In this document: piece by piece, positions 1 to 64,000 of the stretch
How the letters are laid out: every line of letters starts with the position of its first letter
Position numbering within the stretch: the stretch's first letter is position 1
NCBI RefSeq assembly: GCF_025526975.1
Contig: NW_026515685.1
Span: 248,001 to 312,000 of the forward strand
Direction: 5' to 3'
DNA: 64,000 nt
From: Fimicolochytrium jonesii
Lineage: Eukaryota
Position numbers and translations under genes: made by a program
Notes under the pieces: model-generated
Databases searched by the model: none
Told to the model about the DNA's origin: nothing
The model's input: only the letters and a program-made list of their open reading frames with translations

Positions 1-1030
1 CTTTCTGTTTCGTAGGACATGCAAAGTTCCGCACGGTGTCCAATTTCGAGGGTGCGATGGCCATCGTATCCTCTCCCAGGACATGGCTGCAGAATTCAAG
101 CTCTTTCTGCATCCATTTGCACTTCGACGGCTTAACTTAAAGTTTGTGCTCGGCGAGAACAGCCAAAACGCTGTCCACATGAGCGATATGCTCCTCGGCC
201 GTTTCCGAGAAGATTAAGATATCATCCAGGTAAGATATGACATACACAACGCACATCTTCCCCAATATCTTATTGGTTAACCGTTGGAACGTTGCTGGCG
301 CATTCGTCAACCCAAATGGCATAACTTACTCAAAATGACCAAACCGTGTCCGAAACGCTGTTTTGTCCCTATCAGCCTTGCAAACCAAAAGGCGGTGATA
401 CGCATCTTTGATATCCAACAAAGACTTGCACTTCTTTTCACGTAACCGATCCCGCATCTCTGCAAGATTTGGTAACGGCGTACAATCTTTTATCGTTGCT
501 TTATTCAGTGTCGGGGATATCTCATCTTCACTTGTATTTCATATTCCATGTCTTTACTTCTACTTGATCCGAGACCCGGGCTGGCCACCCGAGCTCTCGG
601 TGATACATTACATAAGGCGCCAAGCCTCACTGAAGCCACGCAAGCCCCACTGGCAGCCCATATATAAGGCTGTCAGTCAAGCGGCCGCTGCGAAGAGCTT
701 CTTACTTTTTTCTTCACGACAATATACCGCTCTCAGCTCTCTCGGAAGGGCCCAATATCGTCTACGTTTCCTCTGACGTTACATTCAGCCCACGATAGTC
801 GATGCACATACGGAGACTGCCATCCTTTTTCTTAGCAAATAACACTGCCGCGCCCCACGGACTCTGCGAGTGCTGAATCCAACCGCGCTCGAGCATGAGG
901 GTAACCTTCTCATTTAGCTCTTTGAGTTTGGCTTCGCTCATATGTCGTAAGGGATTAAAGACTGGTTTCGTACCAGGCTCCAGCTCGATACAAAAGTTAT
1001 CCTCTCCCCTATCGGGCGGCAACTCTCGTG
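1..1030 (-). pseudogene. Reverse transcriptase part of pol, inactivated
   Basis: RT motifs are continuous once 509-783 plus one TSD copy is removed (DYRGLN|KATIKDCTPLPNL...LDIKDAYH). In-frame TAA before VMPFG (~326-328), a second TAA after HKL (137-139), and a frameshift near 1030 relative to the protease ORF. Confidence 0.88.
509..783. mobile_element. Solo LTR (275 bp) of a different element, inserted in the RT
   Basis: Starts TGT and ends ACA. Flanked by a 5-bp direct repeat TTCAG (504-508, 784-788). Internal TATATAA near 661. Removing it restores the RT frame. Confidence 0.88.
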
Positions 1031-2062
1031 CTCGACAAACAAACTATCCACGCACTTCTCCAACGTTGGATATAGAAGGTGATCCGATGGCACGCTTAAA
1101 TCAACCTTCTGGCCTGTAACTTCGCTCATTTGAACCTCTGGCTCTGGTTCGGCGCGATTGCGCTCATCTGCGGGGACATAAGCTGGTGACGCATTCACTG
1201 CAGCTTCTATGTCCATAGCGTACGCTATGTAACACTTCCCATACACCTTTTTTCGAGATAAGCGAGTGACCTTCTGATAAGTTACAACCCCTGCACTCGG
1301 GTCTTCTCGTTCAGGCATCGCCGCCTTGAATCGTTTAGACTTCTTTCTGGTGTCAAAGGACCGCAGATCGGCCGCATTACAGGACGACTGGGATTCCCAT
1401 TTCCTAGTTACTGGTCTGGCACCCAGGGTATGTTCAACTTCATTTGCACGGAATCGTAGAACAGGAATCTCATCCTCTATGTGCTCGAAACGATTATTGT
1501 CAAGCATATAGATCCATGGCAATCCGAGAATAACATCTACCCGCAGAGGAGCAACCACAAATGGAAGCTGTTCTCTGGAATAGTGTCGTCCATCTCCCCA
1601 CAACTGTAGATTGCCACAAAATACCTTGTTGGCGTTGAATGTATGGCCGTCGTCGCCCCAGGCGACATCAATGGGCATTTTAGGGTTATAGGTTTGGAAA
1701 GCATGTTTCGACACCCATCCCTGATGTACCATCAGTGTTGTACATCCCGTATCGATCAGAATACGACAAAACTTGCCATTCAACTTGCCATGAACTACAA
1801 ATGCACATCGTGCGATCAACGCATCGGGTTGAAATTGCAGTGCTTCAGGCCTAGTCTTCAAAACGGTTTCAGTGTCATCTGGCCGGCACAGACGCGCCCC
1901 CGCAGCAGACGTATTGCCACAATCAACCAGTATACCATCAGCGGACTCAGGGCGTATAGCCTCAAATTCCTCTTCGATGGACACCATTGCACAATGAGAC
2001 GAATAAACGGTGTCTTTATTAAACGTCTCTACTGAAAACCCTTTTTCTGACCAGCGTCCCAA
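938..2062 (-). CDS. Pol N-terminal part with retropepsin-type aspartic protease
   Basis: [10 protein letters not shown] active site and DVILGLPWI motif; lies in the -1 frame relative to gag. Confidence 0.85.
1996..2041 (-). promoter_or_regulatory. -1 programmed ribosomal frameshift signal between gag and pol
   Basis: Slippery heptamer G GGT TTT in the gag frame (2041-2035), a 5-nt spacer, then the stem-loop GAGACG(TTT)AATAAA-GACACCG-TTTATT CGTCTC (2029-1996). Confidence 0.8.
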
Positions 2063-3297
2063 CGCGGCTTATCCTTAGCCTCGTCGGACTTCTTATCCTT
2101 CTTCTTTTTAGGACAATCTTGCGCACGATGACCCATCTCGCCACAATCGAAACACTTCATGTTGGAGAAGTCAGGGCGTGCGTAAGGTTTAGCAGCTTCC
2201 GCCTTCTTAGCTTTCCCCCCCTTCTTGCCCGCAGTACCTGCGGCAGAAGAGACATTAGCACGTTTAGGCGCACTACTACCAGAAGCAACCGCTTTATCGT
2301 TCGCGTCGGTTCCCTTATTGGCGAGACAAGGTACAGCAAACGAACTAAGCGCACGATCCATCAAACGAATCAATGGAAATGCGAGCAAAGGGTGTTGGTC
2401 CCTATAATCGACCATCGTATGCAATAACGACTGGGCGATCTCATAGCCTACGGTATTGGTCTTATCACGAGTAAGACCACGAAGGAACAGGTTATTCAAA
2501 TCGTCAGGAGTGATAACCTCCAGGTTGCGCTGTGCCTCAGCAACGATACGTTTGAACTCCATCACATACGAATCCATCGACCTATGAAAGGACATTCGGT
2601 GCAGGGTATTGAGCGCGTTGGTTTTCGCTTTCGTAGGATAAAAGGCGAACTTGAAAGCCGTTTCAAAATCCTCCTTCCGCATGTCAAGCCTGCATGCGGT
2701 GTCGAACCAGGTACGTGCGTCGCCTTCAAGCGAGCTCGAGACCTTCTGCATGTACTTAAAGCGGTCAATCGGACGACCAAAAGTAACCATGAAGTCGGTA
2801 TGTTTCTGCAAAAACGTGTCGACAAAAGCGGCCTCACGCTGTTTGCCATTGAACGGATGCTGCGAGATCCATGTACCATAGTGTCTACGCTGCTCGATAT
2901 AGAATGGATCCACCAACCCATCCTGCAGCACATCACGGCGCATTGCGGAGTCACGCTCCAACGTAGCTCGCAAACGATCCTGTTGAGCCTGATGTTCCTC
3001 GGCATGTTGATCGCAAACTTCTGCTTGAGCGGCAGCCGCAGCAGCCTTCATTCGGGCATCAAGCTCCTTGACGGAGATCGTCAACATAGCCATAGCGGGC
3101 GGGTGAGCAGGAGGAGGTCCACCGACCTGGATGCCCTCCAATGGAGCAGGGCCCGTCGTTCGAGGAGGAAGGCGAACTTCAACACGAGGTTGGTCCACTG
3201 AAGTCTCCGGCTCCTCAACGATCTCAGTAATAACAGCCGTGCCTCCAGGAGTAGTTTCCTCACTCCCGGTAACTATACTACCCGTTGATGTACTCAT
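2029..3297 (-). CDS. Retrotransposon Gag
   Basis: 422-aa ORF with the capsid-like segment LEGDARTWF...YVMEFKRI...FLRGL and the zinc knuckle CFDCGEMGHRAQDC. Confidence 0.92.
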   Translation of the reverse strand: MSTSTGSIVTGSEETTPGGTAVITEIVEEPETSVDQPRVEVRLPPRTTGPAPLEGIQVGGPPPAHPPAMAMLTISVKELDARMKAAAAAAQAEVCDQHAEEHQAQQDRLRATLERDSAMRRDVLQDGLVDPFYIEQRRHYGTWISQHPFNGKQREAAFVDTFLQKHTDFMVTFGRPIDRFKYMQKVSSSLEGDARTWFDTACRLDMRKEDFETAFKFAFYPTKAKTNALNTLHRMSFHRSMDSYVMEFKRIVAEAQRNLEVITPDDLNNLFLRGLTRDKTNTVGYEIAQSLLHTMVDYRDQHPLLAFPLIRLMDRALSSFAVPCLANKGTDANDKAVASGSSAPKRANVSSAAGTAGKKGGKAKKAEAAKPYARPDFSNMKCFDCGEMGHRAQDCPKKKKDKKSDEAKDKPRWDAGQKKGFQ

Positions 3298-3314
3298 GAC
3301 AACCTTCTGGCCAG

Positions 3315-5646
3315 TGTAATCTCGTTTTCAGGTCAGATAACCTCAAACAGCGATGAATACGTCCAGAATGCGGACAGAAGTACTCCGTTGATGTTGCATA
3401 GCTCAGTACCTCGAGCAAATACACACAAACAACTACGTTTTCGAATCAGGTATATGCCTTATGCAATAACCAAAATTCGGGCATAGATTTTCCCTCTTTT
3501 TGAGCGAAAAATCCCCAAAATCCACCGTGTCCGATGTCGGCGGGTTTTGGCTGCGTTGATACTGAACCGAATCTGAAGCTATCAGTTTAAAGAGGCCTTT
3601 GAGAGGATTAAGAAGAACCCTAACGGCTAAGCTCTGTCCCAAAACTGAAAGACTTTTTCTATCCGCCCGTTTTCGCTTAAGTATCGAATTAACGACGAAG
3701 GCGTTGACAGATAACTAGTTTTGCAGTGATTCAAAAATCCCAAAACGTTCAGGTAAATTCAAGGTAATTCTCCAGATCAGGAAGAACCTTCTTGGGGGTC
3801 GTTTTGGTCAAAACTGTGATAGTTTTGCTATCCGGAGGTTATGGTGGCGACGATTTAGCGCGTTTTTCGATATCTCCGTATCCGTAGGTCGAATCGCTTT
3901 CAAACTTTCACAAGTTTTCAAGCTCAGTGTGCTCTACGAGGTTTCCGAGTTTGAAGGGGATCGAATTACTGGGGTAGATTTCCGATCCGCAAACGGGTTA
4001 CTAATTGGCTACTAGTGAACACGCGTTTATGTCGACTACGTGTCGACCGTTGAACGAGTACTCTCAAGGGGTTGATATACCGAAAGAGTAAGATGTGGAT
4101 GGCAAACTTCGAGTTACAGAGGTTTGTTTAACCATCCAGGTGCGAAAAGCGAGGTGGTTGCGACGTGTCGGTCGTTCCACTAGGTAAATAACCTAGAGGT
4201 CGGCGCTTTTCGACTATAGCGCACTAGGGGCTTCAGGAGTTGCGATGGACGTTGTCCTGGACGTCCTGAAGGCTATTTGAATCGTCTAGAAGTGTTGTAT
4301 TGACGTCCTGTGACGATTGGTACGTCCGCGATTTCCACTCCAAATGTTCTCCGAACCACTCCCGATGGTGTCCGAACCACTCTTCATGTCAACAGCTGGG
4401 TCGTCCTCTCTACCTTCAGCTGATTCACCGATTGAACTCAGAAGGCAAAGAAGTGCAGGGGTGACACGACCCTGAGCTCAAATGGAGCAAACAACAGCTT
4501 TCCCATGCATTATAAGGACCTCCTTGATTCCATTGGCTGAACATAAGGTTTTCAATGTGCTCTGTGTCTCCCCATAGCACATTGCTTTTACAAACATCGT
4601 GGGTCCTTTCTCACATCGGCCCCAAAGCTTCGGGACTCCCAGGGCTTCTAACAGACTGCTGGGATCGTGCAGGTAAATTCAAGGTAATTCTCCAGATCAG
4701 GAAGAACCTTCTCGGGGGTCGTTTTGGTCAAAACTGTGATAGTTTTGCTATCCGGAGGTTATGGTGGCGACGATTTAGCGCGTTTTTCGATATCTCCGTA
4801 TCCGAAGGTCGAATCGCTTTCAAACTTTCACAAGTTTTCAAGCTCAGTGTGCTCTACGAGGTTTCCGAGTTTGAAGGGGATCGAATTACTGGGGTAGATT
4901 TCCGATCCGCAAACGGGTTACTAATTGGCTACTAGTGAACACGCGTTTATGTCGACTACGTGTCGACCGTTGAACGAGTACTCTCAAGGGGTTGATATAC
5001 CGAAAGAGTAAGATGTGGATGGCAAACTTCGAGTTACAGAGGTTTGTTTAACCATCCAGGTGCGAAAAGCGAGGTGGTTGCGACGTGTCGGTCGTTCCAC
5101 TAGGTAAATAACCTAGAGGTCGGCGCTTTTCGACTATAGCGCACTAGGGGCTTCAGGAGTTGCGATGGACGTTGTCCTGGACGTCCTGAAGGCTATTTGA
5201 ATCGTCTAGAAGTGTTGTATTGACGTCCTGTGACGATTGGTACGTCCGCGATTTCCACTCCAAATGTTCTCCGAACCACTCCCGATGGTGTCCGAACCAC
5301 TCTTCATGTCAACAGCTGGGTCGTCCTCTCTACCTTCAGCTGATTCACCGATTGAACTCAGAAGGCAAAGAAGTGCAGTGGTGACACGACCCTGAGCTCA
5401 AATGGAGCAAACAACAGCTTTCCCATGCATTATAAGGACCTCCTTGATTCCATTGGCTGAACATAAGGTTTTCAATGTGCTCTGTGTCTCCCCATAGCAC
5501 ATTGCTTTTACAAACATCGTGGGTCCTTTCTCACATCGGCCCCAAAGCTTCGGGACTCCCAGGGCTTCTAACAGACTGCTGGGATCGTACAGTCTGCAAC
5601 AGGGATCGTAAATGGGATGACTTGTGAAGTGAACGAGGTTCGGACA
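3315..5646 (-). repeat. Probable 5' LTR (boundaries tentative)
   Basis: Non-coding stretch upstream of gag. On the minus strand it begins TGT (5646) and ends ATTACA (3315), followed by C-TGG (PBS-like) and the gag ATG 18 nt later. The 3' LTR lies outside the window, so the ends cannot be confirmed. Confidence 0.5.
3750..5589. repeat. Head-to-tail tandem duplication, 2 x 920 bp
   Basis: 3750-4669 and 4670-5589 align at a constant offset of 920, with about 3 internal substitutions seen (3793/4713, 3885/4805, 4459/5379). Confidence 0.97.
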
Positions 5647-55694: not shown

Positions 55695-57634
55695 GCGAGT
55701 GACATTCCATCGCAGCACACAGACGCTTTTTTGCCTGCACGCCGCTCTATACCAGTATCATCGTCTGTTCCGGAGATGGGCATTTCAACCGATTTTGTTT
55801 TCACGTTACCCCCCAAGTTATGACTTCTAAACACCGCCCCACCCCCGCCTTTTCACTTTGTGTACCATATTTTTGTTTGATTCTCCTTGTATATGCTCTA
55901 GAGTAAATTAAATTTTGAACGATCGACGGGGTATTCCCCAAACAACAACTGCTTGCTGCCCATATAGCGACGTCGCTTTCGACGGATGTTTCCGACCGGA
56001 AAAAAAGCCTCGTTGCGCAATGCGGAGTTTGAGGGACTAAGCGCCGTTTAAATACGAGTCACGTGAGGTTTATCAAGCGCAACACATTTTTCTCAGCCGT
56101 GCCGCCGCCGCCGCCGCACACAATCCAAACAACTTCCAACTGTCCACGTTGGGAATCGATGGGCCTCGCCGATAGGAAATTTGCACATCATCCCATTACT
56201 ACGAGCTCCTAAATGACAGTGAGATTGGGAGCGCTGCGTCATCACCCATGATGCGAAACTGAACGCCGGGCAGCGATCGTTGTCGGCGCAAGGTGTTGCG
56301 GGCGCAACGAGACAGCACTCGCAACATCTGACAATTGATGGTCGTTAGCCTATCTGCGAAATGTCCGTGGGCGATATACTGTACGGCCGTACAGTAGATA
56401 GCACCTTTCGTAGGCCTTCCGTGTTGGTGCATACAGTACAGCAGGATAGTAGCACGATGTAGCCGGATAGGACTGTACGCCGCCACGCATCGTGGTGTCG
56501 TATTGGGGGGCTGGAACCGGTTGGTTATCCTCGCACATGGAACGCATTGCCCCACCACAACTCTTCGCGCTGCTTCATCGCATGTCCGACACGTGCAACG
56601 TCCTCAATGTAATTTCCCTCCTTCCGCTTGTGTTTTGTACGCTCGTGATACGGTCGCCAACACTGTGCTGTGTGGACACTGTGGTTGCGTGCAGTGTGCG
56701 CTGTCACCCGCTTTGCGCTCCTGTTGGTTGGGAGGCTGGACCAGCCCGGCGTCGTTGGCGTATGTGCAGTACAGTACAGTACTGTATGTGCAGTATCCGA
56801 GTCGGGCTGTTTTGCGCTCTCGTCCCATGTCAAGGGTCTTCGTTCGGCGTCAAGGCGGGAGGTTCCACAAATCACACACCACCAAGTCCCGCCCTCCATG
56901 GCCAGGACACGAGATGGCGGTCGCGGACTCGGGGAAATTCGGGTGGGGCACCCTTGGCACAATACCTCACCGCGGTTCCAGGCTCGTATAGCGGGTGAAA
57001 ATGTGACATGAACCCCTGCGAGATGTCATTTTACGACCCAAAGTGGAGCCGTTTTGTGCGCCTCCTGGTGATTGCCTGGTTTTGGGTTTGCCTTGATCCA
57101 TATCGAACTGCCAATCTTCCTCGAGTCCAGAGAGAAACCAAGCGGACCGAGCTGTGATTCACTGGCGCCCTGAACTAGTCTGAAGACGCGTAAAATTGAT
57201 ATTATCCCCCTCTGTTGAAGGCCCAAGAGCATGCAAAGGCCTTGCAGCAGCGGAGTTGTTGGTAGCGTCGAACGATGTTGAACGTATCCTTTCCGACCGG
57301 TTGGGAAAACAAGTCAACACCGACATCATCAGGCAACGTCGTTGATGTTGGCACGGATTTCTACGCGGTGCGTTTCCTCTCAGGATCTCTTGGGATGTCC
57401 GTCCGCTTCCCTTAGATCCATCGTTCAGATCGCGGCTGTACAGCAGATTTCCCCTTGCGGTTGTATTTGCAGTCGACATCCCAAGTGTGCGAAATCCTTT
57501 GCAGTAAGATGTAACACATCAGCACATTTACAGATCCGGTCTTTGTGATTTGCACGGCTTGCGTAGCCCTCAAGGGACGGTGAAAATGGGAGCACATATA
57601 AAGGCATCGATGCCCTGCTGCACCTCTCGCTGGG

Positions 57635-57908
57635 CCGGTACATTCCGTTCGCTGCGTTCAGACGAACTAATCCCCTAGCCTGCGCTTGTATCCGATCGGT
57701 TGCATACGTGAAGGATAGTCGGTCCATCCTGAAAGCGGTCGTCATTCCGTTCTGCTCCAGCGCTTGCCGGCACATTCCGTCGCTGTGTTCATAAGACGCA
57801 ATCCATTAGCCCTGGGCTCGCATTCGATCGGGTCCGTGCTTGTAGAAGTAAAATCCGTCCAAAGTCCAAGCGCCGTTCATAGTTCATCCCGCCCAGCGCT
57901 TGCCGGCA
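57635..57908 (+). repeat. Degenerate tandem duplication, about 132-136 bp unit, in the promoter/5' UTR of the BTB-like gene
   Basis: Units start CCGGTACATTCCGT (57635) and CCGGCACATTCCGT (57767); they share TAGCCTG, CGATCGG and a terminal CCAGCGCTTGCCGGCA (57757 and 57893). Confidence 0.75.
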
Positions 57909-57940: not shown

Positions 57941-58990
57941 ATGTCAGCATTTGATTTTTATCCACCAGGCACCGGCGATGCCAAATTCATGTCGCTAAAC
58001 GGTCTTCCCAACCTCATCGGATGCCCGAATCCGCAAACTCTGATGTACGGCCAGCAGCCGGCACAATCCATGCTGTATCCGCCACCGGCGCTGTACACAA
58101 ACTATCCTTGGACCCACCATACGTTGCAGCCGCCAGTCCTGACGTTCTTCCCCACATCGGCACCGACATCCGCTCCATCCCCATGGCCCGAAGCGCCGAG
58201 TGATGTCGAAATCGAACAGTTGCTAATATCGTCGCCCCCGCCCCCGCCAGTCAATCCGGCGCAAGGTCTCCCGGAGTCATACGTGAGGGATAAGTTACGC
58301 AGTCTTGGAACGCAGCTATGGGGCGATGTATCGTCCTGCGATTGCTGGGTATTCGTCGAAACCCGCCGATCGAGCCATGATGCCGGTCCCAGTGCCTCGG
58401 CAAATAGACCTCCGACGAAGAAGCCGACACACTTTTCGATGACAGCTGATGGCCTGAACCCGCCGATGCCGCGACCGAAAAAGCCGGCTGAAGATTTCGT
58501 CAGCGTTCATGGGAAGTTGTATCGGGTGGTGCCGTCTGCACAGAGGAAAGTGGAAGAAGAGCAGCAGCGGCAGATGCGCCCATTGACGTTGCCGACTATC
58601 TTGCCCGTGCATTCGATCTTCTTGACGACGTTCTCGCCGGTTCTAGGGAAGCTTGTTCACGATGAGCAAAGGGCCAAGCAGGCGAAGTCACTACCGGCAC
58701 CTACCAGTGGCATGTATCAGCAGTCAGTGCCAACATCAGGTTACGCCGTGACAGAGGACGGCTTTCAGCCACCCCACACGATAACCGTGCAGCCGCCCAG
58801 CCCGGATGCATTTGCGATCCTGCTTCATTGGATATATACGGGCAACGTGGATGCCATGCAGGCGTTCCTAACGAACAGCGAGGGTGCTGTGCTGGCTGTG
58901 TTGGCGAATATGGAGTGGATCGGGTTGAGAGACTCGGAGCTTGCTGCACTGTGTGAGAGTGTGCAGAGGAGCATGGAACTTGAATTGTGA
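57941..58990 (+). CDS. BTB/POZ-like domain protein
   Basis: 349-aa ORF with CDCWVFV, LPVHSIFLTTFSPVLGKL and ITVQPPSPDAFAILLHWIYTG, a split BTB-like signature. Confidence 0.75.
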   Translation: MSAFDFYPPGTGDAKFMSLNGLPNLIGCPNPQTLMYGQQPAQSMLYPPPALYTNYPWTHHTLQPPVLTFFPTSAPTSAPSPWPEAPSDVEIEQLLISSPPPPPVNPAQGLPESYVRDKLRSLGTQLWGDVSSCDCWVFVETRRSSHDAGPSASANRPPTKKPTHFSMTADGLNPPMPRPKKPAEDFVSVHGKLYRVVPSAQRKVEEEQQRQMRPLTLPTILPVHSIFLTTFSPVLGKLVHDEQRAKQAKSLPAPTSGMYQQSVPTSGYAVTEDGFQPPHTITVQPPSPDAFAILLHWIYTGNVDAMQAFLTNSEGAVLAVLANMEWIGLRDSELAALCESVQRSMELEL

Positions 58991-61900
58991 GGGGGTCGGG
59001 GGTTGCTGTGCGGGAAGCGGTGCTATGGCAGCGAGTGACAGTATTTCGGCAAGGGTCCAAGGGACGCGCAAGGCACTTATTGCAAGCGGAACTCAAGGGA
59101 CCGAGATGCAACAAGCAACAAGCAACAAAGCACAAACGACAATGTTCTTCACCATAACCATAAGTCCTCTTCGTTTACGACTTACTACGCTAGTAAGGGA
59201 CATAGACTTGGAGGTGAATAAGTCTGTACCGGTCGCGGATCGACCGGCAATCAAAGAAGGAAGTCCGGTTCATGTTCACTGGACGGTGGTAAAAATGCGA
59301 GCGCCGGTAAAAACTTGAAGCCGAATCGACATTCAACGTTTGCCATCCGGTACCTTTTTCTACCAAGAACGTCTAGTCGAAATCAGAAGCTTGTTGCAGG
59401 CTAGCTCGGGGTGCACGGGTGCGTCCCTAAGACGACGGTGTCCGTTCTACACCGAACCATTGTTCGCCGACGACTCGCAGTCTGTTTTACGGTTGAGCTT
59501 GAGAGGAAGGCGGAGTTCTGCGGAAATGCGGTTATTTTTTACCGTTGGGTCGGAGAGATGTGTTCGCTGGGGCTTTCTTTCGACAGGGGATTGACGGCAC
59601 GTTCTGGAAAAGGTGACAGAACGCGGGATGCATTTTCTTCGCCATACGACTTTGAATCGCCCGTGCGATGCCCATCCGATATCAAGGTTCCGGGGGTTGG
59701 AAGACCCAGAACACCTGCTTGTCGGCTCGCCAGGCCTTTGATAATCGAATGTGCGCAGGCACGAGGAAAGGCAAAGCCATCATTCCTCTCTGCCTGGTCG
59801 GCTCAATGGGGACACTTTTCCCGGAATGTATGGCATCCATAACTCGGTGTTTCGAGCATATGCATGTCCCGGCAACGACCATCGCCATTTGTTGCTCCAC
59901 TCCTATTCGCCTCGAGTAGCCCACTAGGCTCCCATACCCAGGGACGCTCGCCATTGGCCGTCATTTCGAGTAGTCTACGTCAAACAAACCCACCGCCTGC
60001 GTTGACTATCCCGCGCAATCATTCAGTGGCAAGTTGAAGAGTATTGGGGGATACAAAGGGCTGGAGGCTGGGGGAGAGGGAACCGGGACCACCCGCAGGA
60101 GCATGATTCAGCCTTCTTACGGACCGAAGGATACGTGTGTTTGTACATGTCTGCGGCGGGGTTTGCTAGTATTCGATTTTTGTACTGTACGCATATACAA
60201 CTTTCATCCAATAAGAGCAAAACTTTTGGGAGACGCAAACGAAAGGACATCCATGAGTAGAACGACGTGAAAACGGCGGCAACCCTGATGCACGGAGGCA
60301 GCTGTAAGCCGTTGCGCTAGTAGGCCTTTGTTAACCGAGCGATGATACTTACAATATCAGAGAAGATGAACGGACCAGTCTGGAAGCTCATGTTGGATTT
60401 TGGCAAGTAGCCCTGGTTTCCGATATGAAACGAAACCTTCTAAGGCGTGACATTCAGAATACAACATTAATTATAGATTGCGCGGCGAAGAAGCCTTGAT
60501 CGTAAGAGTCCAATCGCATCCTTCCCCCATCAAAGTACCCGAACAGAATAAATCATGTAAATCTTCAGAATGAATCATGTAAATCGTCAGGGAAGCGATT
60601 ACAGGTTCAACTGTCTGCGCAGGTCTGGTACAACGAGTTTCAGGAGTAATCCTCCAAGCAGGGTCGCTCAAACCGAGCGTAAGACCAAACCTCTGCAATC
60701 TCCGGACATTCATTGCTCCAGCAGTTTGGACCGCTGGTTTCGACTCCTTGTTCCGACTCCGATGTAGCAATGAGCGAACATGACATCCTTGTGGTCAGGG
60801 GCAGACATGTAGGCAACCAGCTTTGTCCGGTGACAAACACCGACTCCGGTGGGGCGCAGTGAGGCATTGGGTGAAGCGGACGGGCGGCTGCCCAACAACG
60901 GCGTAGAGTTACTCTGCATGGAACAAAAACCCTCCTAAAAGACCGAGGGAGATGTTGCGGATCGTTGGAAAAACTAGCAGCGCACTTGCAAGACATGCGC
61001 GATCTGGTAATTGCGCCGAGGATCCACAAGGAGAAGCAAATGCACGTCATCCAGCGAACACGGGACGGTCGGGTGGATGGAGCAGAGTGGACATTGTCAA
61101 CGCATGAGGTGGCGCACGCTGTTTGGTCGGGCCGTGGTCAACATCGCAGAAAATCATCGCTTTGGGCGACAGCGGATGGCGGATTCCGCTTGCGACGACA
61201 GGTTTCCGCAATCAGAACTTTGAGCTTCGAGAACGATGTCATACATCTTCCAGGTGATGGCCTATGTCCCTGACTGCATTCGGGAACACCCTTCTCTGAT
61301 AGGCATGGGCATCCTGATTCGAGGGAAGAGGTAGAATGGACCGCGAGGAGTCGCAATGCATCCACGCCTGCGCGCGGCTCATTCTGCCTCATCCACCCTC
61401 CTCTATGCGATCCACTCCTCCTCCGGACCCAGTCCTGTTTTGCTGGTGACAGCCTTACAATTAGCTAGCTGCCAATGAAGTGGAGTAAACTCTGTTTCCC
61501 GGGCGAAACACAGCTCACACTTGTCCGCGGATATCAAAGCTCTCGTGAAACAGTCTCTCTCTACTTCAAGCTGGATCTGATACGTCTCGAGCAGACGTCC
61601 GGCTCCTCCCAATGCAGCCTCTTCTCCCAGTTCCCCCGAAAGTCTGCGGGTAAGTAGTTAGCAATTTGATAATGTACCCATCGGGAATCTGCTTTTTAAA
61701 CTGATTCTCAACGCATTGTGCGGTCCGTCGCAGAACGTTAGGTTTTCCTCCAACTTCCAGGAGTCGGAGGACGATGGACATTGATTGGAGACTCCATGAC
61801 TTGCGACGCGTTTTCCATTCGCAGCGAATGCGGCGATGTCCAGATCGATCAGATCCGCCAGCGGCATTGCATCCACACACAGACGTATCAATAGCTACTG

Positions 61901-62672
61901 GCATGCGTCAGTCCCCGATGTGGATAGCCCGCCTCGTGGAAGTAGCGCGATATCTTTCCAAAGATGGACTTACCAGTCCGTCGTCTTGCCCGTGATACCG
62001 ATCTTCGTGGCATGTTCGGGACCATCGGCGAGTCAAGCGAGGGGAGGACCTCGCAGTCTGCGACGCTGCCAACCTCCCAGCGTCGCCAGCGTCGCCAAAT
62101 CATACTGTCCCAGTCAGCAACAGCCAAACCTTCTCCCTTTCTCTGTGTTCTCTTCAACTTTTCGTTTTATGTATTGTACAGTACAAACAGTTGTGGCACA
62201 GAAGTGACGAAAATGAAACTCAACGCGCACAAAATAGCTTTTTATACGTACATTGGACCATATTGAACACAGATGAGCCTGATGATGGACCTCCCAAGGC
62301 TCCCATCGAACCTCCACCGTCACTGTGAGCGGCTAATTCCTTCGCATTCCACAGGGCTTCTTCTGTTTTTTTTTTCATGTTGAAGGGATATTGAAGGGAT
62401 TTGCGGCGAGCTCTTCCAGCGAGGGCTTCCATGGAAGAAAGAGGGAGGAGGTATGGGGGCAAGGGGCGAGAATGAATTGGCAGACTCATCAACGCGGTGA
62501 CGGCGGGATGAAGGCTGCAACGATCAATGCAAGCGTGAGCGGGAAATGAAGCACAAGGAGAAGATCGGTGTCAGCTTTACGAAATTGGAGACTCACCCGA
62601 GCTTACGAACAACCCACCGCTTGGTCGCCAAGGGAGGAGGGTACGCTCGACGGTCGTCTGATCCGGTTCGTC

Positions 62673-62679
62673 TATAAAA
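62673..62679 (+). promoter_or_regulatory. TATA box upstream of the hairpin cluster
   Basis: TATAAAA followed about 25-35 nt later by a pyrimidine-rich stretch typical of a start region; no credible ORF downstream. Confidence 0.6.
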
Positions 62680-62749
62680 GACGGGGTCTGGAGCTCATCC
62701 CCACCACTTTTCTTCATCCGAGTCCCCCAACTCACATCGTTCAGCAAGC

Positions 62750-62850
62750 GCGATTACTGTTCTTTCGCATTCAGGTTCTGTCTTGCACATCAAAAGACAA
62801 TACGCAGTGGTGTGCGCAACACATAACTTGGAGCGGAGAATAGTAATTGC
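62750..62850 (+). ncRNA. Pre-miRNA-like hairpin 1 (conserved 3' arm 62824-62847)
   Basis: GCGATTACTGTTCTTTCGCATTCAGGTTCTGTCTTGCACATCA pairs with TGGTGTGCGCAACACATAACTTGGAGCGGAGAATAGTAATTGC, using G-U pairs on the plus strand. Confidence 0.7.
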
Positions 62851-62905
62851 TGTCGTCGGCAACATCAGTTTCCGCTTTTTCTGAACCTGTCAACCGCCCA
62901 GCTTC

Positions 62906-63034
62906 CCAGATACCACATCATCACTGTTCCTTCATTTCTGAGTTTGGTCCTGACGAGCTTTTGCATACGGCTTTCATTCGGCCTGTTGCCCATACGTCAG
63001 CACCTAACTTGGAATGGAGAATGGTAATGTCTGG
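62906..63034 (+). ncRNA. Pre-miRNA-like hairpin 2 (conserved 3' arm 63005-63028)
   Basis: CATCACTGTTCCTTCATTTCTGAGTTTGGTCCTGACG pairs with CGTCAGCACCTAACTTGGAATGGAGAATGGTAATG; basal CCAGA/TCTGG helix. Confidence 0.7.
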
Positions 63035-63094
63035 TCTTGATACATTGGCAAGGCCTTGACATCTTTACGGTCGTCTTTTCGATTTTTATTTTGT

Positions 63095-63222
63095 GTCGAG
63101 GTTCCGGTTACTGGTCTTTTCATTTCCGGGTTTTGCCTTGACGCTTCATGCGGCCCCATGTCGGGCCGGAGATGGCGATAATGCATAACTTGGAATGGAG
63201 AACAGTAATCAAGACTTCCGAC
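63095..63222 (+). ncRNA. Pre-miRNA-like hairpin 3 (conserved 3' arm 63186-63209)
   Basis: GGTTACTGGTCTTTTCATTTCCGGGTTTTGCCTTGACGCT pairs with GGCGATAATGCATAACTTGGAATGGAGAACAGTAATC; apical CGGCCC/GGGCCG helix and basal GTCGAGGTT/GACTTCCGAC helix. Confidence 0.7.
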
Positions 63223-63444
63223 GTTCTTTGGAATGTGACCATTTGCCTCGGTTACCCATCACTGGCAACCGATTAGCATCTCAAATTCAGTATGAATGAC
63301 ATCCAAACCATCCACGATCATTGAAGTCTGGCTTTCCTCAGTACCATCTCATTCGCATTCCAAAAACTTGTATTTCCAACAGCGTAATGGTATGCACCAC
63401 AACAGTCTCCCTCCCCCGCGAGAATGGTATATACACATAATCAA

Positions 63445-63624
63445 AAGGCACCACCGGGAATCCCGAGTCCTTTATCACAACAAAGAACCGCAAGCGCTGA
63501 TAATACCGTTCGGAGCAAAACTGGAGCCCCCGTCACTCCTCTCTCCTGAAGGCACCACCGGTAAACCGGGTCCTTATAGCAAACATAAACCGCAAGCACG
63601 ATATAACCCGACCGAACACAAACT
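63445..63624. repeat. Degenerate direct repeat, 2 x about 77 bp
   Basis: AAGGCACCACCGG...GTCCTT...AACCGCAAGC...AAACT at 63445-63522 and 63549-63624. Confidence 0.75.
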
Positions 63625-63651
63625 ACGGCCCCGTCAACGATTTTTTTTCCT

Positions 63652-64000
63652 TTAGGAAGGCGGCGCTAGTGGAGCCCAATCCTCACTGTCCGCGATTCCC
63701 TGCATGATTGCAGCGATGCTCTGTAGCGCTGAGTACGCTCCTGTTGAGGTGGAATATCAGTGACGAACGTACAAGTGAAGATACCGTTGCTGATCGAGCA
63801 ATACATACCCTGGCTTATGGTCAACTGGATTTTAAAAGGCCCCTCCCCGGGCTCCTCCGCATCTTCGTCATCCCCGCTCGCGGCACCCGACGACGACGCG
63901 GGCTCACCGTTGGCTCGAACGACGAGCGCGGTGAACTTCACGGGCTTAAGCACAATCCGTTCAGTCTGGGTAGCGTTCCCGCTGCTGAAGCCAGGAGCCG
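63652..64000 (-). CDS. 3' end of a gene entering from the right edge; C-terminus resembles the KA1-like tail of Gin4/Hsl1/BRSK-family kinases
   Basis: Intron 63808-63741 (GTATGT...CAG); spliced product LKPVKFTALVV...FKIQLTISQGAYSALQSIAAIMQGIADSEDWAPLAPPS*. The kinase domain itself is not visible. Confidence 0.55.

Follow-up and report, generated by a model that had tools for sequence, protein, structure and literature searches.

A candidate microRNA-like cluster of three paralogous hairpins in the chytrid Fimicolochytrium jonesii

Animal microRNA (miRNA) clusters whose members share a seed consist of tandem paralogous hairpins in which the mature arm is conserved while the passenger arm and the loop drift, and Drosha measures a basal stem of about 11 bp. 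Plant-type precursors have a long lower stem, and the long hairpins of plant miR159 and miR319 are cut from the loop side, one Dicer-family enzyme making both cuts. In fungi, PMC3547838 describes Neurospora milRNAs that derive from one hairpin arm and carry a 5' U, with milR-1 combining a TATA-like element with RNA polymerase III (Pol III), and PMC3759863 reports that milR-1 depends on Dicer for one step and that its size is set by exosome/QIP trimming. A re-analysis of fungal loci (Johnson et al. 2022; PMC9757828) gives 15 of 1727 reported loci as passing strict rules. Its 41 species belong to the Ascomycota, Basidiomycota, Glomeromycota and Microsporidia, no chytrid being covered, and the terms 'chytrid', 'cluster' and 'polycistron' do not occur in its main text. 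As regards the machinery, Table S2 of PMC6206976 lists six Argonautes, three Dicers and neither Drosha nor Pasha for S. punctatus, and records Drosha and Pasha as absent from the other three fungi too. Among the matches listed in PMC12663654, Powellomyces hirtus has three Dicers, two of them with PAZ, and a Dicer was detected in 11 of 13 chytridiomycete assemblies, Geranomyces variabilis being one of the two that gave none; the Dicer table of that paper does not include F. jonesii. Our literature search, covering titles and abstract openings with subscription journals thinly represented, gave among the hits listed no study of chytrid miRNAs and no occurrence of a 16-letter piece of the motif described below.

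Fimicolochytrium jonesii is a chytrid of the Spizellomycetales, family Powellomycetaceae. A lysophospholipase encoded in the window described below agrees with a protein of this species over 570 of 570 residues, save for two gaps. We analysed a 64-kb window of its genome, to which all coordinates refer, and describe in it a unit of three plus-strand hairpins that we consider probably to be a miRNA-like small-RNA gene cluster, at a probability of about 0.62. The region of the cluster holds no credible gene. To its left, the nearest long frame stops at 58990; this intronless frame of 349 codons (57941–58990) has no Pfam match, and a TATAAA and a duplicated leader lie upstream of it. To its right is a convergent gene for an 806-aa Ser/Thr protein kinase (Pfam Pkinase, E 1.4e-69) that ends at 63652, outside the cluster; its last two exons occupy 63652–63998 on the minus strand, with an intron at 63741–63808 (protein P0067 matches 63998–63655), and 442 nt separate its stop codon from hairpin 3. 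Pfam itself returns only Pkinase for this protein, which may be of the Nim1/Gin4/BRSK group by its general likeness. Two diverged non-coding tandem duplications, with units of ∼135 nt and ∼104 nt, are found at 57630–57905 and 63445–63650, and none of eight folds of these duplications falls below z −0.4, i.e. they fold no better than shuffles. A retroelement region of Ty3 type takes up positions 1–5590; its minus-strand frames encode gag, zinc knuckle and protease, and ∼920 nt are directly repeated in tandem at roughly 3750–5590.

The original prediction held that no credible open reading frame covers the hairpins, and the plus-strand frames agree with it: those that start with ATG before 63290 are at most 42 codons long, and the first plus-strand ATG past 62700 is at 63014. 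None of 12 short frames between 60474 and 63998, three of which overlap the hairpins, matches Pfam at E 0.1. Between 58000 and 64000 no Rfam family reaches threshold, four weak matches up to E 10 being far below it and all lying off the hairpins. A tRNA scan returned nothing. Several other identities were considered and rejected. None of the four weak Rfam matches is to a snoRNA family, and the stems are continuous with no large pocket (boxes were sought by eye). The hairpin ends are not consistently GT...AG, as mirtrons would require, and a splice-motif scan gave one weak donor-like word. A spliced coding repeat or micro-exon array is contradicted by the lack of an ATG before 63014 and by a repeat spacing of 181 nt, which is not a multiple of 3.

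That spacing belongs to a 24-nt motif, predicted to start at 62824, 63005 and 63186, which we find exactly as written at 62824–62847, 63005–63028 and 63186–63209 on the plus strand, the copies lying 181 and 181 nt apart from start to start. A 17-nt degenerate core, with up to three mismatches allowed, matches four times in the window (three exact matches and one with three mismatches); shuffled sequences gave a mean of 0.40 matches, and four were reached in none of 100. Positions 1–9 are invariant, as had been stated, and so are columns 12–17 and 20–24, leaving only columns 10, 11, 18 and 19 to vary. All four differences are transitions, and G-U wobble could let one target base read each of them. 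The arrangement of variable columns is reminiscent of a seed, at a level that is not significant: four variable columns would miss positions 1–9 by chance with a probability of 0.13 and would avoid positions 2–8 plus 13–16 with a probability of 0.067; for the observed avoidance of both the 5' seed and positions 12–17 the chance is 0.07–0.22.

Between copies, the 3' arms are 88–92% identical and the 5' arms 70–74%; loops are 35–51% identical (32–42% when shuffled) and spacers 38–49% (41–47% when shuffled). Loops and spacers alike had been described as sharing no obvious similarity. This is correct for the spacers, which stand at shuffle level, but less so for the loops, where a slight likeness is seen: those of hairpins 2 and 3 are 51% identical versus 42% when shuffled, and a small inner helix is kept. 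Since this trace of likeness is retained, hairpins 2 and 3 are probably the younger pair. Of the 23 paired columns of the motif (positions 2–24), 4 differ between copies on the 3' side, compared with 11 on the 5' side. We note also that the 3' arms keep an even 181/181-nt spacing, possibly by chance, although the 5' arms are 167 and 187 nt apart and loops and spacers are of unequal lengths.

Hairpin 1 (62750–62850; z −5.61), hairpin 2 (62919–63029; z −3.77) and hairpin 3 (63106–63210; z −6.43) were each compared with 300 shuffles, none of which folded as well. Their 5' arms, the predicted passenger strands, lie at 62753–62778 (paired with 62824–62847), 62920–62945 and 63107–63133, and the 24-mers are the predicted guides. 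Hairpin 3 may be lengthened to 63098–63217 by an extra 6-bp helix after a 2×2 loop. In the ensemble, 21–23 of the 24 positions pair to their own 5' arm in an unbranched duplex, and in copy 1 the pairing probability is 0.0 at position 1, the 5' U, and at least 0.98 at positions 3–22.

The expectation that the region 62700–63250 folds better than shuffled sequence is borne out on the plus strand (z −6.12, with 0 of 100 shuffles as good); the minus strand gives z −1.81, and 2 of 100 shuffles equal it. Taken singly on the minus strand, hairpins 1, 2 and 3 have z values of −1.88, −3.76 and −2.88. The minus strand costs hairpin 1 15 kcal/mol and hairpin 3 17 kcal/mol, and only hairpin 2 is without strand information, its two folds being equal (z −3.77 versus −3.76). 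G-U pairs had been said to favor the plus-strand RNA, and the count is 16 G-U cells on the plus strand versus 3 on the minus. For all three hairpins on the plus strand, RNA energy parameters give a stronger z than DNA parameters. The shape of the hairpins alone is unexceptional: several of 4260 windows of 120 nt have stems that are equal or longer, and hairpin 2 is outside the top 40 windows ranked by energy per GC. The exceptional feature is that the three stems are paralogues in which one arm is conserved and its partner has changed in compensation.

Two further observations concern the flanks. The leader that follows the TATA box (62697–62723) is similar to the hairpin 2 5' arm, and its duplex with guide 2 has −20.1 kcal/mol; it is possibly a relic of another unit, or chance. 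A weak fold-back at 63342–63432, which on the minus strand would fall within the 3' region of the kinase gene, could be an eroded fourth hairpin, and the candidate tested at 63330–63445 has a z of only −1.14. Within this fold-back, 63420–63429 has the same 10 bases as guide 2 positions 13–22, without the seed.

Each 24-mer had been described as the 3' arm of an imperfect stem whose diverged 5' arm still pairs, and comparison of the hairpins shows that this divergence is compensated. In a common structure of 30 pairs, written from single folds of these same three sequences, 87 of 90 cells are paired; both bases have changed in 6 of the pairs and one base in 9, and 12 are invariant. Changes on both sides were as numerous in 1 of 500 shuffles, in a comparison of only three related sequences where relatedness alone can beat such shuffles, and slid registers pair 31–48%. 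RNAalifold recovers the same stem unprompted, with a covariation term of −4.3. Because three relatives can beat shuffles without any structure, two additional checks were made. The 5' arms prefer their own 3' arms in all three cases (−36.7, −34.1 and −32.7 kcal/mol, versus −20.4 to −30.6 kcal/mol for crossed arms), a preference that is weaker for the 24-mer duplex alone, where the 5' arm of hairpin 2 favors copy 3 over copy 2. In neutral simulations run to the observed divergence, with gaps counted as substitutions, so stable a duplex was kept in 0–6 of 3000 trials in each of six comparisons.

The three stems share a common anatomy. Twenty-four pairs run along the conserved arm and the next base, two bases being bulged out of the 5' strand; at the top of the arm the first U is unpaired and is followed by three pairs, a pyrimidine mismatch and at least three further pairs. 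Mismatches fall at +1 and −4 in each of the three hairpins, in the same register. Directly below position 24 there are 3, 1 and 1 pairs in hairpins 1, 2 and 3, and 45, 59 and 52 nt, respectively, separate the duplex strands. The feature is evidently real and under structural selection. From the gradient of identity, the cognate pairing, the compensation and the G-U bias we infer selection on the plus-strand RNA, acting on the structure of the two arms and on the sequence of one of them; this combination points to a small-RNA guide family, of which it is the signature.

Searches for further copies were made within and beyond the window. A covariance model scores the three hairpins at 102–112 bits and its best other match in the window at 13.3 bits. 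In metagenomes, a 20-letter degenerate core of the motif matched 10 loci, once each, and none of the 10 matches extends to the full 24-mer; in a viral collection the same core matched two loci, with local sequence the same as in loci L007 and L003. A three-hairpin covariance model scored at most 8.6 bits on these 12 loci, a blank that says little on conservation in collections that are mainly prokaryotic and viral. To our knowledge, the metagenome and viral collections contain few chytrid sequences. One metagenome match (L008:1–1654), probably a chance one, is on a terminally redundant contig corresponding to a circle of ∼1531 nt with a single 275-aa frame. Its product has a basic N-terminus and no Pfam match, and looks to us, presumably, capsid-like; a hammerhead-like core near the start of the contig was recognized by eye and has no Rfam match.

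The miRNA-like reading of the original prediction remains the best fit, and its structural case has become stronger because of the compensation, the cognate pairing and the conserved register of mismatches, while the reading itself is still one that we infer. A constraint limited to one strand, sharp edges 24 nt apart, an unpaired 5' U and the two A-U pairs next to it together suggest a released guide RNA. As the locus reads, one non-coding transcript from ∼62700, more likely made by Pol II, would carry all three hairpins and would yield, on cutting, a family of microRNA-like guides with a 5' U and a length of roughly 24 nt. The 5' end of the guide would be set at the conserved U mismatch by a Dicer-family enzyme, not Drosha, cutting from the loop side, and the 3-bp helix, pyrimidine mismatch and further helix retained above the U would position this first cut; a cut on the loop side is predicted because basal pairs are scant and the helix above the U is kept by compensation. 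With only one to three pairs directly below position 24, the 3' end would come either from another cleavage, at the base of the stem, or from trimming by an exonuclease. Argonaute would preferentially load the 3' arm on account of the weak pairing at the U-A-A end, and the three guides, identical at positions 1–9, 12–17 and 20–24, may repress a common set of RNAs in trans.

Within the 64-kb window we found no near-perfect complement of the guides outside the locus, the best duplex having −24.7 kcal/mol, and no strong complement in the Ty3 element (best −21.8 kcal/mol). A perfect complement of guide positions 1–8 is present at 55813–55820 on the plus strand, 118 nt past the stop codon of a gene with a cyclin domain; there is also some 3' pairing (−17 kcal/mol). 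It is not significant, as 37 of 630 permuted seeds (0.059) match in the same 15 downstream regions, and we treat this candidate site as only a lead.

The precursors had been called canonical-looking. This applies to the fold-back and the conserved arm but not to the rest of their geometry, where a basal stem is absent and 45–59 nt lie between the strands. Like a miRNA precursor, each hairpin is a fold-back with the predicted product in an unbranched duplex, and a conserved mature arm with a passenger that keeps the structure is seen among the three paralogues; the basal stem of ∼11 bp on which the animal Microprocessor relies is lacking. With animal same-seed clusters the locus shares tandem paralogues, an invariant 5' region of the arm, and a drifting passenger and loop; it differs from animal miRNAs in the missing basal stem and in its long apical extension. 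The likeness to miR159 and miR319 is that the first cut would be guided by conserved pairing above the duplex, although lineage and sequence are unrelated, the conserved block here is 24 nt rather than 21 nt, and no near-perfect target is seen in the window. Ichthyosporean Sphaeroforma miRNAs (PMC6206976) show the same likeness as the animal clusters and, like them, need Drosha and Pasha. Neurospora milR-1 to milR-4, as described, are alike in being fungal, intergenic stem-loops with a one-arm 5'-U product, a TATA-like element and no Drosha; they differ in being single hairpins on short Pol III transcripts that end in T runs (PMC3547838, PMC3759863), whereas here, by this comparison of descriptions, three paralogous hairpins follow one another and the unit has internal T runs. 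The locus agrees with the fungal catalog of PMC9757828 in being intergenic, without an Rfam match, and with an unbranched duplex in which most conservation resides, but the well-supported loci of that catalog usually have <20 nt between the duplex strands, as against 45–59 here. With the basal stem nearly absent and the strands this far apart, the hairpins fit neither the Drosha geometry nor that of typical short fungal hairpins. The locus resembles a miRNA family cluster in its workings, and its membership of that class is putative.

A TATAAAA on the plus strand had been placed at 62673 and is present there (62673–62679); we regard it as the likely promoter box of the cluster. TATAAA occurs 13 times on both strands of the window (128 kb). 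Of 13 gene starts picked by hand (two of the 13 picks not being at an ATG), 4 have it in the preceding 400 nt, so that TATAAA probably serves as a true promoter word in this DNA. General TATA-to-start spacing places the predicted transcription start zone at 62697–62703, 24–30 nt past the first T of the box. Runs of T are found at 62708 (T4), just past the predicted start, at 62876–62880 after hairpin 1 (T5, a possible Pol III stop), at 63076–63092 between hairpins 2 and 3 (T4/T5/T4), and, as T4, within hairpins 2 and 3; after hairpin 3 the first T4 run does not come before 63641. Neither hairpin 2 nor hairpin 3 has a separate TATAAA. Transcription by Pol II had been claimed from the TATA box. 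The box does not name the polymerase, since Neurospora milR-1 combines a TATA-like element with Pol III (PMC3547838), but Pol II stays the more likely enzyme because T4–T5 runs lie inside the unit, and the simpler reading is a putative Pol II read-through of the whole unit. A scan for sigma-70 promoters and terminators gave chance levels and has no bearing on a eukaryote. At 62240–62246 the minus strand has another TATAAAA, which faces away from the cluster into 60000–62200, where no credible gene was found.

The runs of T bear on a variant that we consider distinctly unlikely, in which the hairpins give imprecise siRNAs, or hairpin 1 is a short Pol III RNA and hairpins 2 and 3 are reached by read-through. 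Hairpin 1 would fit a milR-1-type Pol III gene with the T5 at 62876, and a transcript driven by the TATA box and ended by that run would be ∼175 nt long, the size reported for pri-milR-1 (PMC3547838); cutting of low precision is also common for fungal hairpin RNAs (PMC9757828). A Pol III transcript would, however, meet the T4 at 62708 just past its start, and further T4 runs in hairpins 2 and 3, and these two hairpins are as constrained as hairpin 1 while lacking a TATAAA; the sharp edges of conservation argue for precise ends. The orientation of the box speaks also to the idea that the hairpins are minus-strand cis-elements, for instance for localisation or stability, which the convergent kinase mRNA would carry in a long 3' UTR. 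The stop codon 442 nt away and the equally good minus-strand fold of hairpin 2 make this conceivable, yet such a UTR would need to be longer than 900 nt, the TATA box faces the other way, the minus-strand folds of hairpins 1 and 3 are weaker by 15 and 17 kcal/mol, and the region as a whole has z −1.81 on the minus strand against −6.12 on the plus strand; we regard it as highly improbable.

Two explanations dispense with both processing and the kinase mRNA. If the RNA were an unprocessed structured non-coding RNA whose hairpins are repeated protein sites (a scaffold, decoy or sponge) and whose conserved arm is recognized within the fold, this would account equally well for selection on structure and strand. 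Bulges and mismatches at the same places in all three hairpins would fit such sites, and the absent basal stem is awkward for known processing routes. A reader of the duplex should nonetheless constrain both strands, whereas of 23 columns the 5' strand has 11 that vary and the 3' strand 4; the conserved block stops sharply at 24 nt, the length of a small RNA, and the loops, the usual site of recognition, are the least conserved part, which makes this explanation unlikely. That the hairpins are functionless leftovers, either from a mobile element of fold-back type or from an inverted repeat triplicated in place, seems very unlikely. The window does hold other local non-coding duplications (57630–57905 and 63445–63650), a Ty3-type retroelement and imperfect stems this long elsewhere, but those duplications fold no better than shuffles, and leftovers leave it unexplained that spacers are at chance level while the arms are 88–92% identical and compensated. 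A DNA inverted repeat predicts no strand bias, against the G-U bias of 16 to 3, and the window has no fourth copy (13.3 versus 102–112 bits). We therefore retain the cluster of miRNA-like genes as the preferred reading.

A broader proposal, which we put forward tentatively and consider doubtful, is that chytrids have their own, independently evolved miRNA families, with polycistronic Pol II clusters, a dedicated Dicer paralogue that cuts from the loop side in place of Drosha, 24-nt guides sharing an invariant 5' seed, and repression of mRNAs at short sites in 3' UTRs; under such an animal-like chytrid system, the cyclin-domain gene 7 kb upstream would be the first target candidate. Whether fungi have true miRNA families, and how many times miRNAs have originated, are open questions in the field. 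If the miRNA-like reading of the cluster is true, the locus would give a fungal phylum that branched early and lacks Drosha a miRNA-like family of its own that is clearly defined, with a precursor geometry unlike that of animal or typical fungal hairpins, and it would offer a candidate class of endogenous substrates for the three Dicers and six Argonautes reported for S. punctatus.
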